Made by a program: the position numbers and the translations under genes. A stretch of DNA of 64,000 bases, taken from Gemmatimonadota bacterium. GTDB lineage: Bacteria > Gemmatimonadota > Gemmatimonadetes > Gemmatimonadales > GWC2-71-9. The stretch covers positions 6,008-70,007 of the forward strand of contig JBEPVA010000001.1 of the NCBI GenBank assembly GCA_041691295.1. The letters are read 5' to 3'. Positions 9,053 to 11,858 of the stretch are shown piece after piece. Numbering within the stretch: position 1 is the first letter of the stretch; every line of letters starts with the position of its first letter. Under the pieces are notes generated by a model. That model was not told the origin of the DNA. It saw only the letters and a list, made by a program, of their open reading frames with translations, and ran no database searches.

Positions 9053-9939
9053 GTCCTGCCGAACCGACGCCGGCTGAAGCCGTCGAGAAGCTGGCCGAGT
9101 ATTTCCGGCCACTGCCCACCCGCCAGGGGGTTTTGGCCCGCCGGCTGCTCCGCCGGCCCGCACCGGGCGATGCGGAGCTGACCGTCAAGTTGCAGCGCCA
9201 GCTGGCGGCGGAGGTCGGCCCCGATGGGATGGTGGCCGGCGGCCTGGCCTTTACCGCGTTCCGCCTGATCGAACTGATCGAACTCGGTTGCGATGAGGAA
9301 ACGCCGGCGGTGCCGCGGTTGATTACCTGGCTGCTGGCCCAGCAGGACCAGCCCGGCGCCTATGGGGAATCCTGCGTCCCGACCCGGCACGAGCAGGGCG
9401 CTTGCGAGCACTACCTTGCTGGATTCCTGAGCCCCGGTCCGCTGATGATCCGGGTGGCACCGGTGACTTTCCCCAATGGCAAGGTCTTCCGGGTCGAGCC
9501 GGCCGCACGGTTTGCGCTGAGCTGCCTCGGGCTCCGTGCCCTGCAGCTCACACCGGCCCGGACCTACGCCGCCGTTCGACGGCACCTGAGCTCACTGGCC
9601 AAACTCAAGAATGCCTGGGTGACGTGGGACGGGTTCTTTCCGCCCGACCTGCTGCTCACCGCCCTCACCGCACTCGGCACCGCCGGCGACCTCGAGCGCA
9701 GCGCCACCGCCGCGGCGACCAGTTTCGTGGTGGCCCACCAGAATAGTGAAGGCGAATGGCCCGGGGCCGACCTGTTCGTGGCGCTCGAGGCATTGCTGGC
9801 CGTGGGCAGTCCGGAGGCGCTGGGCGCCATCCATCGGTCGCTACGGTGTTTGATCGAGCGCCAGCGGGCCGATGGCAGCTTCGGGCCGGCGGCGCAGCAG
9901 GAGCGGGCGCTGATCGCGTTGCGGGGGTTGGTGGCTTAG
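9049..9939 (+). CDS. prenyltransferase / squalene-cyclase-like alpha-alpha toroid repeat protein
   Basis: ATG 9049 overlaps the previous stop. Repeat signatures QDQPGAYG, QNSEGEWPG and RQRADGSFG. Confidence 0.6.
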   Translation: MSPAEPTPAEAVEKLAEYFRPLPTRQGVLARRLLRRPAPGDAELTVKLQRQLAAEVGPDGMVAGGLAFTAFRLIELIELGCDEETPAVPRLITWLLAQQDQPGAYGESCVPTRHEQGACEHYLAGFLSPGPLMIRVAPVTFPNGKVFRVEPAARFALSCLGLRALQLTPARTYAAVRRHLSSLAKLKNAWVTWDGFFPPDLLLTALTALGTAGDLERSATAAATSFVVAHQNSEGEWPGADLFVALEALLAVGSPEALGAIHRSLRCLIERQRADGSFGPAAQQERALIALRGLVA

Positions 9940-10017
9940 GGGATAGCGGACGTAATTTTGAGGATGACAGCATTAAAATGATGATGCAGATGTATGTGCG
10001 CCGGCGATCTTTGGTGA

Positions 10018-10611
10018 ATGAACGATCGATCCCAGCGGATCTTCAGACACGGCGGTGTTTGGTTCGACCGCCAATCCAACCGACATCAGGGCCACGACTA
10101 TACGAAGCCGGGCGCCTATTTCGTCACGATAACGGCAGAGAGTCGAAATCGGGTCTTCGGTGGGATGCTTGATGGCCGACTAGAGCTCAATGATATCGGA
10201 TGGCTGGTCCGTGAGGCCTGGAGCACGCTCCCCGTGCACTGCCCATGGGTAGGGATTGGAGACGCGGTGGTCATGCCAGACCACTTCCATGGCATCGTCC
10301 ATATCCTTGCATCTTCGCCTGTTAGGGAGGGCGATCACAAGGATCGCCCCTACCTTGCTGGCCGACCCAAGGGGACAGTTCCGAATTCGGTCGGGCGTGC
10401 GGTTCAGGCGTTCAAGTCCCTGACGACTCGGAGATACATCGAGAAGGTCCGGGCTGATCGATGGACGAGGTATGAGGGGAGACTGTGGCAGCGGGGATAC
10501 CACGACCGGATCATCCGTGATAACGCCGAACTGGAGCGAGCACAGCAGTACATCAGGGACAACCCTCGTCGATGGATGTCCTGCAGGCCGAGGGTCCAAG
10601 GAGAACGGTAG
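10018..10611 (+). CDS. REP-associated tyrosine transposase (RAYT; IS200/IS605 Y1 transposase-like)
   Basis: 197 aa. Motifs GAYFVTI, HUH motif HFHGIVH, and C-terminal WQRGYHDRIIRD with the Tyr. Confidence 0.85.
   Translation: MNDRSQRIFRHGGVWFDRQSNRHQGHDYTKPGAYFVTITAESRNRVFGGMLDGRLELNDIGWLVREAWSTLPVHCPWVGIGDAVVMPDHFHGIVHILASSPVREGDHKDRPYLAGRPKGTVPNSVGRAVQAFKSLTTRRYIEKVRADRWTRYEGRLWQRGYHDRIIRDNAELERAQQYIRDNPRRWMSCRPRVQGER
10329..10354. repeat. REP-like hairpin H1 (inside the RAYT ORF)
   Basis: gggcgatc-acaag-gatcgccc forms a perfect 8-bp stem and is followed by ctacc. Its reverse complement matches H2 at 24/26 positions. Confidence 0.7.
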
Positions 10612-10632
10612 GGGCGATGCTTGTCATCGCCC
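10607..10632. repeat. REP-like hairpin H2 (overlaps the RAYT stop codon)
   Basis: ggtag-gggcgatg-cttgt-catcgccc. It is the inverted copy of H1, and the only two differences are compensatory in the stem. Confidence 0.7.
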
Positions 10633-10776
10633 GACCGCCTTCCCCCTCGGGCCGGTGAGTGGCCGAACGGCAAGGCAGCCGAACCTCCGCCTGGGGGGCC
10701 AAGGGCCGAACGACAGGCCGCGCGAAGAGGTAGGCAGGGGCCATTCCCCACGGGGCAATGATCGAGGATCTGTTTT

Positions 10777-10810
10777 CGCTTACGGCTTAAGGCTTACGGC
10801 TTATGGCTTC
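10777..10810 (+). repeat. heptamer tandem repeat GCTTANG x ~4.5
   Basis: gcttacg gcttaag gcttacg gcttatg gcttcac. The tract runs into the selD ATG (10803). Confidence 0.7.
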
Positions 10811-11858
10811 ACCAATCCCCTCCCCCATCAAACTCACCGCCTACAGCCACGGCGCGGGCTGCGCCTGCAAACTCGGCCAACTCGACCTGACCGAGATCCT
10901 CCGCAGCCTGCCGGGGATCGAGGACCCGCGGGTGCTGGTGGACGCGGCCACCCGCGACGACGCCGCGGTCTACAAGCTGTCCGCCGAGCGGGCATTGATC
11001 GCCACGGTGGATTTCTTCATGCCGGTGGTCGACGACGCCAGGACCTGGGGGATGATCACCGCGACCAACGCGCTAAGCGATGTCTACGCCATGGGGGGCA
11101 CACCGCTCTTCGGCCTCAACCTGGTGGGCTGGCCGCGCGAGCTGTTGCCGTTCGACCTGCTGGGGCAGGTCATCGAAGGCGGCGCCGAGGTCGCACGGCG
11201 GGCGGGCTGCCTGGTGCTGGGCGGCCACTCGGTGGATAGCCCCGAGCCGCAATTCGGCATGGTCGTCATCGGTGAGGCCCATCCGGACCGGATCTTCACT
11301 CTGGCCAACGGCAAGCCCGGCGACCGGCTGGTGCTCACCAAGCCGCTCGGCACCGGCATCCTCACTACCGCCCTCAAACGCGGCCGGATCGACGAGGCGG
11401 AGCTGGCGGAGGCGGTGGCATCCATGTGCACCCTCAACGACGGAGCGATGCGGGCCGCCCGAACTGCTGGCGTGCGCTGCGCGACCGACGTCACCGGTTT
11501 CGGACTGACCGGTCACCTGGGCAACATGGTCCGGGCCAGCGGGCTGGCAGCCGAAATCAGGATCTCGGCGCTGCCGCTGCTGCAGGGTGTCTGCCAGCTG
11601 GCGAGGGATGGGATGGTTCCCGGTGGCACCAGGCGAAACCTCGAAGCCGCAGCGGAGGTCAAGTGGGGAGCGGATGTGAGTGACGTGGACCGGGTCATCG
11701 TGGGCGACGCTCAGACTTCCGGCGGGCTGCTCATAGCCGTGGCGGAGGAAAAGCTGGCGACGTTGCTGGAGGAGCTCAGGAAGGAGAGGACGCTGGCGGC
11801 GGCAGTTATCGGGAGGCTCACCGCTGGAACGCCAGGCGAAATCCAGATTTCGAACTAA
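10803..11858 (+). CDS. selD: selenide, water dikinase (selenophosphate synthetase), Cys-type
   Basis: 351 aa. N-terminal SHGAGCACKLG active-site loop carries Cys, with no in-frame TGA. AIR-synthase-like fold blocks. Confidence 0.9.
   Translation: MASPIPSPIKLTAYSHGAGCACKLGQLDLTEILRSLPGIEDPRVLVDAATRDDAAVYKLSAERALIATVDFFMPVVDDARTWGMITATNALSDVYAMGGTPLFGLNLVGWPRELLPFDLLGQVIEGGAEVARRAGCLVLGGHSVDSPEPQFGMVVIGEAHPDRIFTLANGKPGDRLVLTKPLGTGILTTALKRGRIDEAELAEAVASMCTLNDGAMRAARTAGVRCATDVTGFGLTGHLGNMVRASGLAAEIRISALPLLQGVCQLARDGMVPGGTRRNLEAAAEVKWGADVSDVDRVIVGDAQTSGGLLIAVAEEKLATLLEELRKERTLAAAVIGRLTAGTPGEIQISN

Follow-up and report, generated by a model that had tools for sequence, protein, structure and literature searches.

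The window analysed here is a stretch of 64,000 nucleotides from a Gemmatimonadota bacterium (contig JBEPVA010000001.1). It contains a gene of the RAYT (TnpA_REP) type, with a prenyl-cyclase-like gene and selD as neighbours and without tnpB, together with two short hairpins of the REP type, designated H1 and H2. The following features were assigned:

9935-10818, no strand: cassette with the RAYT gene and both REPs, its leader being lower in GC and its trailer carrying repeats (from GC, an alignment and a blastn comparison of L242 with the window)
10018-10611, plus strand: RAYT/TnpA_REP gene of 197 aa, HUH-Y1 ssDNA nuclease of subclass 2.4 type (ORF, profiles and fold)
10273-10293, plus strand: HUH motif block MPDHFHG with H89 and H91 (both His invariant in an alignment of 42 sequences)
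10306-10383, plus strand: variable linker, residues 97-122, from strand beta3 (HUH) to helix alphaC, predicted to be disordered
10329-10353, minus strand: REP copy H1, GTAG GGGCGATC cttgt GATCGCCC in minus-strand reading
10486-10518, plus strand: WQRGYHDRIIR block, equivalent of the GTAG-recognition region of E. coli TnpA_REP (aligned to residues 91-123 of 4ER8)
10549-10566, plus strand: YIRDNP, the Y motif, with Tyr178 and Asn182 as presumed catalytic residue and metal ligand (4ER8 has YIYINP at the aligned position)
10608-10632, plus strand: REP copy H2, GTAG GGGCGATG cttgt CATCGCCC

The cassette (9935-10818) had no DNA homology to the sister genome in the blastn comparison with L242, whereas its flanks were about 91% identical, and in the same slot the sister genome carries a different RAYT without any REPs. 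The GC content was 0.555-0.62 in the region 9900-10600, versus 0.68-0.725 upstream and 0.68-0.71 downstream.

An earlier, sequence-only reading of this DNA had identified the ORF as a RAYT, and this was supported by the Pfam profile, the predicted fold and the catalytic residues. The protein exceeded the cut-off of Pfam Y1_Tnp (26 bits, cut-off 23), while it stayed under those of the NCBIfam profiles REP_Tyr_transpos (61.4 bits, cut-off 80) and transpos_IS200 (20.4 bits, cut-off 55). E. coli TnpA_REP (4ER8) was the sole match of the PDB profile search, with E = 4.6e-8. The AlphaFold model of the 197-aa protein had a pLDDT of 84, and its comparison with Foldseek returned 4ER8 (TMq 0.52, rmsd 4.4) and the TnpA proteins of ISDra2 and IS608 (E ~5e-6). 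In the 42-sequence alignment Y178 and N182 were invariant, like H89 and H91, and W157, Q158 and R167 were invariant or almost so. H89 and Y178 are 89 aa apart and the last helix ends at residue 189. The Y motif was taken as defined in Table 1 of Quentin et al. (2018, BMC Genomics 19:475), who also list W94, Q95, E100, H101 and R104 as the GTAG-recognition residues of E. coli TnpA_REP. The protein encoded at 10018-10611 has the catalytic residues and, in the predicted model, the fold of the HUH/Tyr nucleases.

As read on the plus strand, the two 26-mers are GGGCGATCACAAGGATCGCCCCTACC (H1, 10329-10354) and GGTAGGGGCGATGCTTGTCATCGCCC (H2, 10607-10632). The reverse complement of H2 has two mismatches with H1, located at the two partners of the base pair that closes the loop (C-G in H1 and G-C in H2), and the perfect 8-bp stem is retained in both. 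H1 and H2 are thus inverted copies with compensatory differences, as the earlier reading had described them. The loop has 5 nt in the two hairpins (ACAAG/CTTGT). The GTAG foot occupies positions 10608-10611 on the plus strand in H2 and 10353-10350 on the minus strand in H1; this tetranucleotide was absent from the earlier description of the hairpins. With their GTAG foot, three G-C pairs at the base of an 8-bp stem and CTTGT loop, H1 and H2 are canonical REPs. According to Di Nocera et al. (2013), GTAG REPs often provide TAG stops and fall into sub-families whose stem changes compensate each other. The C-G/G-C difference between H1 and H2 would be ordinary sub-family variation of this sort with pairing preserved.

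A repeat search of a 2-kb region gave the H1/H2 pair, extended to 31 nt at 87%, as the top inverted repeat by length. In single-stranded DNA folding of either strand both form predicted hairpins, with z values of -3.8 to -4.9 relative to shuffled sequences. When the 64-kb window was scanned for GTAG followed by a perfect hairpin with a stem of 8 bp or more, only H1 and H2 were recovered, in agreement with the previous statement that the window has no further copies. The mean number of GTAG hairpins was 0.07 in a set of 200 first-order Markov simulations of the window, none of which contained two or more. The hairpin-only pattern allowing up to 2 mismatches had at least two matches in 9 of 100 shuffles and is not significant alone; the significance of H1 and H2 comes from the GTAG head, the exactness of the copies and the copies found outside this genome.

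The pair differs from a REPIN, in which inverted REPs lie nearby and form one long hairpin, as the H1-H2 spacing is 254 nt and the GTAG feet point inward. A giant REPIN or RNase III site formed by a long-range H1:H2 duplex in the mRNA was considered and rejected, since both MFE and centroid folds keep two local hairpins (z = -1.0). Two further REP candidates were also discarded. The first, TTAGGGGAT at 9936-9944 upstream of the RAYT gene, resembles a REP head and overlaps the TAG stop of the upstream gene, but it is without a hairpin and not significant; the second, GTAGGCAGGGGCC at 10731, is without a proper stem. Nor was there evidence that the segment 10354-10607, which lies between the inverted REPs, has undergone inversion, its orientation being the same in L001, the only independent assembly. 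The one contig retrieved in a search for contigs encoding the protein was a Logan contig of 2.1 kb, whose sequence is identical to that of the window.

Reading of the ORF and of the sequence placed H1 within the coding linker and the stop codon within H2, as had been proposed. H1 is in frame and translates on the plus strand as G105-Y112 (GDHKDRPY), and the TAG stop of the RAYT gene (10609-10611) is the TAG of the GTAG of H2. The AlphaFold pLDDT was 51-60 over residues 101-120, below 50 for the H1-encoded residues 106-112, and no secondary structure was predicted there. The sequence-only reading had suggested aligning RAYT homologues to see whether the segment encoding H1 is an insertion. In our alignments the linker columns were gapped in short-linker homologues, so that relative to them this segment is indeed an insertion. 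The possibility of GDHKDRPY being a protein motif was discarded because relatives read the same hairpin family in other frames or on the other strand, and because the 25 nt are identical also at synonymous positions. The layout in which the stop codon belongs to GTAG was found in 6 of 75 homologous loci. H2 was also considered as an intrinsic terminator, and this was rejected as it is followed by GACCGCCTTCC, without a T-run. The promoter and terminator scan of 9800-10900 found nothing, and the Rfam search gave no family match at E up to 1.

A scan of genome contigs with GTAGGGGCGATSCTTGTSATCGCCC, in which the source contig is absent from the matches listed, showed that at least 120 genome stretches, belonging to many phyla, contain the identical 25-mer. 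The groups among the matches listed include Geobacter, Latescibacterota, Armatimonadota, Nitrospira and Manganitrophus, as well as others. Among these listed matches, 122 of 124 copies are not near a RAYT, and the closing pair is C..G in 110 copies, G..C in 13 and unpaired in one. In L002, L004 and L008 the identical 25-mer is in the linker, in the same frame and position, although their proteins are 45-49% identical in the conserved cores and the flanking DNA has diverged. A search of the accessible part of Table S1 of Quentin et al. (2018) and of the Di Nocera et al. (2013) text did not find the exact variant, with its GGGCGAT[CG] stem. The GTAG foot, the GGG/CCC base, the presence of the same 25-mer in homologues and dispersed elsewhere, and the resemblance of in-gene REPs to the extragenic REPs of their own locus support the earlier suggestion that H1 and H2 are the cognate REPs of this RAYT.

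The earlier reading had also named, as evidence against itself, homologous RAYTs that encode the same linker without hairpin potential. This was not what we found, as 54 of the 75 homologous loci (72%; probably about 85%) have one or more GTAG hairpins in the linker, and approximately 11 of the 21 loci scored as negative still encode REP-derived peptides. Over the 75 loci, the density of GTAG hairpins was 9.5/kb in the linker versus 0.08-0.18/kb in the far flanks and 0.55-0.6/kb in the rest of the gene. The 60 nt adjoining the start and stop codons had 3.3 and 4.6/kb, respectively, the linker being 2-3 times richer. Scrambled control heads gave mostly 0.1-0.2/kb, apart from GGTA (1.33/kb), which overlaps GGTAG. 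The linker REPs of 57 loci comprise 36 different stems, paired in every case. On the plus strand they are read in frames 0 and 1 and on the minus strand in any of the three, and they may be single, paired as doublets or arranged as double-foot units; true REP doublets are present in linkers of homologues, and some functional-looking family members have short, REP-free linkers. Within a locus the best identity between in-gene and extragenic REPs had a median of 0.92, compared with 0.60 between loci. In addition, in-gene REPs were correlated with the RAYT phylogeny (Mantel rho 0.25, a value reached in 0 of 2000 permutations). These data demonstrate that the in-gene REP layout is the norm in this family and that the in-gene copy follows the sequence of the extragenic REPs at the same locus.

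A REP inside the RAYT linker has been described as unique to TnpA_REP subclass 2.4, which is equivalent to Bertels group 4 (Quentin et al., 2018). Consequently, the previous view of the in-gene copy as unusual is right for RAYTs in general, but within subclass 2.4 this layout is the rule and was already published; the element capture, self-targeting or regulatory role that it put forward for the copy is speculative. The locus is a new Gemmatimonadota example of that layout and not a new kind. Agreement with the subclass extends to the length of the protein (197 aa against about 194, both near 195 aa), the HuH-Y distance (89 aa, class median 88), the WQ and YIxxNP motifs, the lack of a C-terminal extension, and the insertion between beta3 and alphaC, variable in length and sequence, with a REP within this coding linker (here H1, residues 105-112). 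Likewise, in the REPs the 5' GTAG is followed by a stem whose base consists of three G-C pairs (GTAGGGGC...), as expected for subclass 2.4, whose REPs are either canonical with three such pairs or of the double-foot type (Quentin et al., 2018). In Table S1 of that work GTAGGGGC occurs 105 times, the sampled rows being all of subclass 2.4. A patchy occurrence among phyla is also shared and, to judge from the two copies in 64 kb, probably so is a low number of REPs, which was reported for group 4 RAYTs (Bertels et al., 2017).

Some differences with respect to the subclass were observed. In the signature NH[IFV]H...WQ...YIxNNP only WQ is matched by the window protein, since the other two motifs each have Asp for Asn (DHFH instead of NH[IFV]H and YIRDNP instead of YIxNNP); relatives from the same homology search vary between D and N in the HuH motif. 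The window has only a 3' flanking REP, with no intact upstream REP, and its linker contains one REP in place of the common convergent doublet or double-foot unit. Finally, a Gemmatimonadota host and the GGGCGAT[CG] stem were absent from the accessible part of Table S1 of Quentin et al. (2018).

Comparison with E. coli TnpA_REP (YafM/RayT, 4ER8; group 2, subclass 2.2) revealed the same HUH/Tyr fold, a GTAG-headed hairpin as presumed substrate, conservation of W-Q...R in the GTAG-binding region and a single-copy gene with inverted REPs. However, structure-based identity between the two proteins is about 17%, and the window protein is under the NCBIfam equivalog cut-off (61 vs 80 bits). E. coli REPs are also longer, bulged and extragenic, with hundreds of copies and none inside the E. 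coli gene. Short palindromes lying in frame within protein-coding genes are reportedly also found in Rickettsia, as the Rickettsia palindromic elements. Intragenic GTAG/CGTC REPs are likewise short in-frame palindromes tolerated in surface loops, and their GTAG termini give TAG stops (Di Nocera et al., 2013). Both the intragenic REPs and the Rickettsia elements are sporadic and reside in unrelated housekeeping genes, whereas in subclass 2.4 the host is the gene of the REP's own nuclease and the insertion is near-universal at one loop.

From these results, we consider it quite probable that the locus is a small Gemmatimonadota REPtron, with an intact subclass 2.4 RAYT and two cognate REPs. By analogy with the E. 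coli and Marinomonas TnpA_REP proteins, the enzyme would bind the hairpin and GTAG on single-stranded DNA, in H1 on the bottom strand and in H2 on the top strand, and would cleave and rejoin nearby between C and T or between C and A. If so, H1 and H2 would be substrate copies of a low-copy REP family. The cleavage mechanism of TnpA_REP is known from biochemical tests on groups 2 and 3 only (Corneloup et al., 2021). The in-gene copy may persist because it is located in a peripheral loop in which any stop-free frame is tolerated, and RAYT-mediated renewal from other REPs, selection, or both could have kept H1 perfect at the DNA level. Against the REPtron interpretation, the protein departs from the published motif signatures and stays under the NCBIfam RAYT cut-off, both REP copies seen in the 64 kb sit at the RAYT gene, and the RAYT in the same slot of the sister genome is devoid of REPs. 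Moreover, the idea of a tolerated passenger is strained by the linker density, by the prevalence of 72-85% and by the perfect 25-mer despite 45-49% identity of the protein cores, and these three observations hint at selection or targeting rather than mere tolerance.

The alternative that best survives, although we judge it considerably less probable, is that the in-gene REP is a selected component, either a protected master copy or an operator in the gene or mRNA by which the RAYT senses itself or limits its expression. As a master copy, it would ensure that the RAYT always carries a REP seed, lost only by exact in-frame deletion. This agrees with the prevalence across phyla (72%, or about 85% with decayed copies), with a linker density above even that of the adjoining intergenic DNA (9.5 vs 3.3-4.6/kb), and with the complete (100%) identity of the 25-nt REP, in unchanged frame and position, in genes whose neighbouring codons have diverged. 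The concerted evolution of in-gene and extragenic REPs points in the same direction, but it could result secondarily from the action of the RAYT on whichever REPs lie nearby. Likewise, the enrichment could be explained by survivorship, as loop insertions alone spare the gene, together with preferential action near the RAYT's own gene. The orientation, number and frame of the linker REPs vary so widely that they resemble repeated insertion and not one conserved device, and the functional-looking members with short REP-free linkers also stand against it. We thus keep only as a tentative possibility that the linker REP is a maintained part, serving as seed copy for joint inheritance and transfer of RAYT and REP or as a site of self-regulation. 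If this were true, selection would account for the near-universal occurrence of linker REPs, for their 50-100-fold enrichment relative to distant flanks and for their concerted evolution with extragenic REPs, and the sister genome, in which a REP-less RAYT takes the place of the whole cassette, would show RAYT slots to be exchangeable loci.

It is improbable that the main action of the hairpins is on RNA, with H2, which begins one base past the stop codon, stalling terminating ribosomes or blocking 3' exonucleases, H1 pausing translation and the REP nature being secondary. In E. coli, a REP that lies no more than about 15 nt from the stop codon reportedly lowers protein yield through ribosome stalling and tmRNA. 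The predicted mRNA fold, in which H1 and H2 remain local stems, and the recurrence of GTAG as stop in 6 of 75 loci are also consistent with an action on RNA. However, H1-type copies occur in both orientations among homologues and most copies elsewhere are far from RAYT genes, and for these reasons RNA effects on the RAYT cannot explain the REP family. In addition, of the three frames in which a GTAG can be inserted one yields a stop (Di Nocera et al., 2013), and therefore its overlap with the stop codon may be incidental. The lack of a T-run and of an Rfam match and the ordinary overall fold of the region (z = -1.0) also argue against this explanation.

Much less probable still is that H1 and H2 are the left and right ends of an insertion sequence of the IS200/IS605 type with the ORF as its TnpA. 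Such elements (IS608, ISDra2) share with the window the Y1 HUH fold and the recognition of a subterminal single-stranded DNA hairpin with a 5' tetranucleotide guide; the fold of the window protein matches their TnpA as well as 4ER8, and hairpins near a Y1 transposase gene are their hallmark. Nevertheless, their ends are on one strand outside the gene, whereas the window hairpins do not flank the gene on one strand, being on opposite strands with one of them intragenic. Furthermore, the foot is the REP-specific GTAG, the hairpins occur without the gene in other genomes, the element is single-copy in the window, the transpos_IS200 score (20 bits) is far from its cut-off of 55, and the neighbours are the prenyl-cyclase-like gene and selD, with no tnpB. 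As for a functionless likeness due to chance or local duplication in GC-rich DNA, to which the presence of only two copies in 64 kb and the non-significance of the 2-mismatch hairpin-only pattern might point, it is refuted, to a negligible residual probability, by the simulations (0.07 GTAG hairpins expected per window and two in 0/200), by the exact copies that unrelated genomes carry in at least 120 stretches and by those in the same protein loop of distant homologues.

To our knowledge, function is known for no RAYT. If the in-gene copy were functional, this built-in substrate site would provide a direct experimental handle on the role of these domesticated nucleases. The locus described here adds a Gemmatimonadota example and a cross-phylum REP variant to the documented oddity of subclass 2.4. 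The comparison also gives a guide for annotation, as the peptides GDHKDRPY, RGE(S/P)C(I/V)RP, VGAPLVGA, (A/T)TTRVAPT and GQ(P/T)QG(I/L)(A/P)(P/L) are one GTAG hairpin translated in different frames and strands. Such strings occur in proteins labelled transposase or hypothetical and are not protein motifs.

The REP-associated tyrosine transposase (RAYT) gene of the window carries one hairpin inside its ORF (H1) and a second on its stop codon (H2):

10018-10611, plus strand: RAYT ORF, 197 aa
10329-10354: H1, with GTAG on the minus strand (10353-10350), reads GGGCGATCACAAGGATCGCCCCTACC
10607-10632: H2, with GTAG on the plus strand (10608-10611), reads GGTAGGGGCGATGCTTGTCATCGCCC

Re-reading of the sequence confirmed that H1 and H2 are inverted near-copies, as claimed by the sequence-only reading, since 24 of 26 positions match after reverse complementing. 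The mismatches are the two sides of the loop-closing pair, and each hairpin keeps a perfect 8-bp stem with a 5-nt loop. A repeat search gave this pair as the longest inverted repeat of the surrounding 2 kb (31 nt, 87%), and both copies fold as ssDNA hairpins on either strand (z-scores from -3.8 to -4.9). H1 is in frame and translates to GDHKDRPY (residues 105-112), and the TAG stop codon of the gene (10609-10611) falls inside H2. In addition, GTAG lies directly at the foot of both hairpins, a diagnostic feature that had been overlooked; H1 and H2 are canonical REPs. The earlier statement that the window holds no further copies also stood, as a scan of the 64 kb for GTAG followed by a perfect stem of 8 bp or more gave exactly two sites, H1 and H2. 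Markov simulation of the window (200 runs) gave 0.07 such sites on average, and no run had two. These values, together with the dispersed copies found elsewhere, ruled out a chance origin, and the observation of H1 and H2 is confirmed.

The H1/H2 25-mer was searched in 185,579 species genomes and at least 120 stretches with matches were obtained. The matches listed came from Geobacter and other Desulfuromonadales, Thermodesulfobacteriota, Latescibacterota, Armatimonadota, Nitrospira, Manganitrophus, Aminicenantes, Tectomicrobia, Chloroflexota and others, often with the 25-mer on several contigs of one genome, and for 122 of the 124 copies among them no RAYT-like ORF was anywhere near. The 25-mer is a genuine dispersed repeat. 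The possibility that H1 and H2 are IS200/IS605 ends was ruled out by the IS200 model score of the protein, the GTAG-hairpin scan and the copies lying away from RAYT-like ORFs. At the two degenerate positions of the pattern, the closing pair was C..G (H1 type) in 110 of these 124 listed copies, G..C (H2 type) in 13 and unpaired in one. The difference between H1 and H2, initially described as compensatory, does preserve pairing, but these counts make it ordinary sub-family variation under selection for pairing; stem changes of this kind have been described for GTAG REPs generally (Di Nocera et al., 2013).

The RAYT protein scored 26 bits with Pfam Y1_Tnp, just above the threshold of 23, 61 bits with the NCBIfam model of E. 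coli-type RAYTs (cut-off 80) and 20 bits with the IS200 model (cut-off 55). A profile of 42 homologues matched a single PDB sequence, the E. coli TnpA_REP 4ER8 (E = 4.6e-8), which the AlphaFold model (pLDDT 84) also resembles (TMq 0.52, rmsd 4.4 A), as it does the IS608 and ISDra2 transposases. Residues H89, H91, W157, Q158, Y178 and N182 are invariant in the homologue alignment. With the motifs as defined by Quentin et al. (2018), the catalytic tyrosine would be Y178, in YIRDNP, and the GTAG-recognition region would correspond to the WQRGYHDRIIR block. The gene looks intact. The product of the adjacent selD clusters at 90% identity or above with proteins labelled Gemmatimonadota bacterium, so that a Gemmatimonadota MAG is the most probable source of the window. 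In the AlphaFold model, the residues encoded by H1 sit in a loop without secondary structure between an HUH strand and helix 125-147, and residues 106-112 are its lowest-confidence stretch (pLDDT <50). Short-linker relatives lack these alignment columns, which agrees with the initial idea that the H1-encoding segment could be an insertion. The core of that interpretation was correct and the finding is real: the data show an intact HUH/Tyr nuclease gene with two canonical cognate REPs, in a layout found across the family. We consider the identification of the RAYT and its cognate REPs highly probable.

The TnpA_Y1 superfamily was divided into subclasses by Quentin, Siguier, Chandler and Fichant (BMC Genomics 2018, 19:475). 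These authors have already reported REPs inside the gene as unique to subclass 2.4. This subclass, which corresponds to Bertels group 4 and is scattered over phyla, comprises proteins averaging 194 aa, with a median of 88 aa from HuH to Y, the motifs NH[IFV]H, WQ and YIxNNP and no C-terminal extension; its REPs are either "double foot" units or have three G-C pairs at the base of the stem (Quentin et al., 2018). The window RAYT is alike in length (197 aa), H89-Y178 distance (89 aa), WQ and lack of extension; unlike the signature, it has Asp for Asn in both other motifs (DHFH and YIRDNP). Table S1 of Quentin et al. (2018) places GTAGGGGC-headed REPs under subclass 2.4, such as GTAGGGGCGAAAAATTTTTCGCCCCTAC, a unit also present in comparison loci L045 and L054. 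GTAG REPs often supply the TAG stop to adjacent ORFs and can lie within genes (Di Nocera et al., 2013). Since the 16-mers flanking group 4 RAYTs occur at only about 14 copies per replicon (Bertels et al., 2017), the lack of extra REPs in 64 kb is unremarkable. The locus very probably belongs to a documented kind, in which a subclass 2.4/group 4 RAYT has one REP in frame within the gene and another on the stop codon. The phylum and the REP variant are new, neither having been listed before; the stem GGGCGAT(C/G) is absent from the available portion of Table S1 of Quentin et al. (2018) and from the text of Di Nocera et al. (2013).

Comparison with the sister Gemmatimonadota MAG GCA_040002715.1 (locus L242) revealed about 91% DNA identity as far as the stop codon that ends the prenyl-cyclase-like gene upstream and again from about 16 nt into the selD ORF of the window, with no DNA homology in the intervening 0.9 kb or so (window 9935-10818, L242:1630-2538). 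The GC content is 0.555-0.62 in 9900-10600 of the cassette, 0.68-0.725 upstream and 0.68-0.71 downstream. Because this slot lacks homology between flanks that are about 91% identical and is lower in GC, the whole REPtron (the RAYT with its REPs) was exchanged and did not evolve in place. The L242 slot likewise encodes a RAYT of the same family (181 aa, 33% identical, short linker) and contains neither H1 nor H2, which shows that a REP-free allele fills the same slot in a close relative. The swap extends into selD and replaces its first 7 or so codons, the product beginning with MASPIPSPIKL in the window and with MTNTAASPIKL in L242. A tandem heptamer GCTTACG (10778-10809, 4.6 copies, 88% matches), not found in the sister genome, abuts and enters the selD start (ATG 10803). 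In the RAYT-selD spacer, two direct copies of GGCCGAACG(G/A)CA... 43 nt apart (10661-10726) and GTAGGCAGGGGCC at 10731, without a proper stem, may be decayed repeats. At the exact left edge of the cassette, the stop codon of the upstream gene lies within TTAGGGGAT (9936-9944), similar to the REP head GTAGGGGCGAT; not significant alone, it may be a vestige of an upstream REP. Repeats of another sort lie in the trailer of the sister RAYT (L242:2323-2502), namely a direct repeat of 39 nt whose copies are 53 nt apart and two inverted repeats, one of 35 nt with 74% and one of 23 nt with 83% complementarity. Unrelated to GTAGGGGC REPs, these could represent another associated family of repeats. Directly after selD, the sister genomes L242 and L245 have an extra 347-aa gene (L242:3682-4725), without a match in Pfam and missing from the window.

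Even the nearest homologues share just 40-47% identity with the window protein, yet the peptide GDHKDRPY recurs in several of them within an otherwise unalignable linker, the stretch between strand beta3 and helix alphaC (residues 97-122 in the window protein). The identical 25-mer GTAGGGGCGATCCTTGTGATCGCCC occurs in the linkers of comparison loci L002, L004/L005 and L008, in the orientation, frame and position of H1 and with diverged adjoining nucleotides. These loci carry a convergent doublet: its first arm is a GTAG-GGGCGAA(C/T)-hairpin, translated as RGE(P/S)C(V/I)RP, and the 25-mer is its second. More copies of the same hairpins or doublets lie immediately outside the gene. Other recurrent linker peptides, among them VGAPLVGA, ATTRVAPT and GQTQGLPL, are hairpins of this kind translated in a different frame or from the opposite strand. 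GTAG hairpins were then located relative to the HUH and WQ motifs in 80 metagenomic loci with relatives at 31-43% identity, 75 of which were scorable.

GTAG hairpins per kb in and around RAYT genes of metagenomic loci
Linker: 9.5
Remainder of gene: 0.55-0.6
Up to 300 nt from gene: 1.45-1.8
Up to 60 nt from start / stop: 3.3 / 4.6
Distant flanks: 0.08-0.18
Most scrambled control heads, in linker: 0.1-0.2
Control head GGTA, in linker: 1.33 (overlaps GGTAG)

At least one GTAG hairpin was present in the linker of 54 of the 75 loci (72%). In about half of the 21 negative loci imperfect hairpins still encode REP-derived peptides (e.g., GQPQGIAPT, VGAG...), so the true prevalence is nearer 85%. The 86 linker REPs have 36 different stem 8-mers, with large variety between loci; as the scan demanded near-perfect pairing, stem counts alone are no test of pairing. 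Plus-strand linker REPs use frames 0 and 1 and never the frame reading TAG; minus-strand ones use all three. Linker and extragenic REPs had a median best identity of 0.92 within a locus (9/31 identical) and of 0.60 between loci (1% identical), and REP similarity tracked RAYT core similarity (Mantel rho 0.25, reached by none of 2000 permutations). GTAG at the foot of a REP provides the RAYT stop codon in six loci, precisely the situation of the window. In L019, L027 and L052 the layout agrees completely, with a single minus-strand REP in the linker and a plus-strand one on the stop codon; L010 is arranged likewise, its plus-strand REP lying just within the end of the ORF.

By analogy with the TnpA_REP enzymes of E. 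coli and Marinomonas (Messing, 2012; Ton-Hoang, 2012; Corneloup, 2021), the window enzyme would bind the REP hairpin and GTAG on single-stranded DNA and would cut and rejoin at a C|T or C|A close by; the bottom strand would present H1 as a substrate and the top strand H2. In the simplest account, REPs would first pile up near the RAYT gene, which mobilises them, and the gene would stay intact only where they inserted into the permissive loop and in a stop-free frame; the RAYT would then act on the in-gene copy, which would stay identical to the REP population. The view of this copy as a mere passenger is weaker, because REP density in the linker is 2-3 times that immediately beside the start and stop codons, prevalence is 72-85%, and the 25-mer is perfectly conserved between proteins 45-49% identical even in their conserved cores. 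Selection of the in-gene REP, whether as a protected seed copy or for self-regulation, is a rather doubtful alternative. A secondary role of the hairpins at the RNA level is possible but quite improbable. Both persist in the predicted mRNA fold; no T-run follows H2, and Rfam gave no match.

Several of the loci with RAYTs of this family showed further arrangements. At L009:56-681, a 69-nt unit that carries a GTAG-GGGCGAAC REP is repeated nine times in tandem (93% matches), immediately upstream of a RAYT that lacks an intact hairpin in its linker; a CRISPR-like array was rejected, as the whole unit repeats and forms a head-to-tail REP array. In the 10-kb locus L056 (1969-9752), at least four distinct GTAG REP families form inverted doublets around a single RAYT, which suggests several REP populations in one genome. 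At L002:1059-5875, three REPs separate the RAYT from a type I-C cas3-cas5d-csd1 operon that directly follows it, and in four independent metagenomes (L004-L007) the P0012 RAYT comes directly after an RHH/PemK toxin-antitoxin pair. Finally, the REP family GTAGGGGCGANNCTTGTNNTCGCCC was found in 34 stretches of contigs classed as viral (L088-L121, IMG/VR), which may be true phages or host fragments, with up to 7 copies in the 37.5-kb contig IMGVR_UViG_3300036761_001330.
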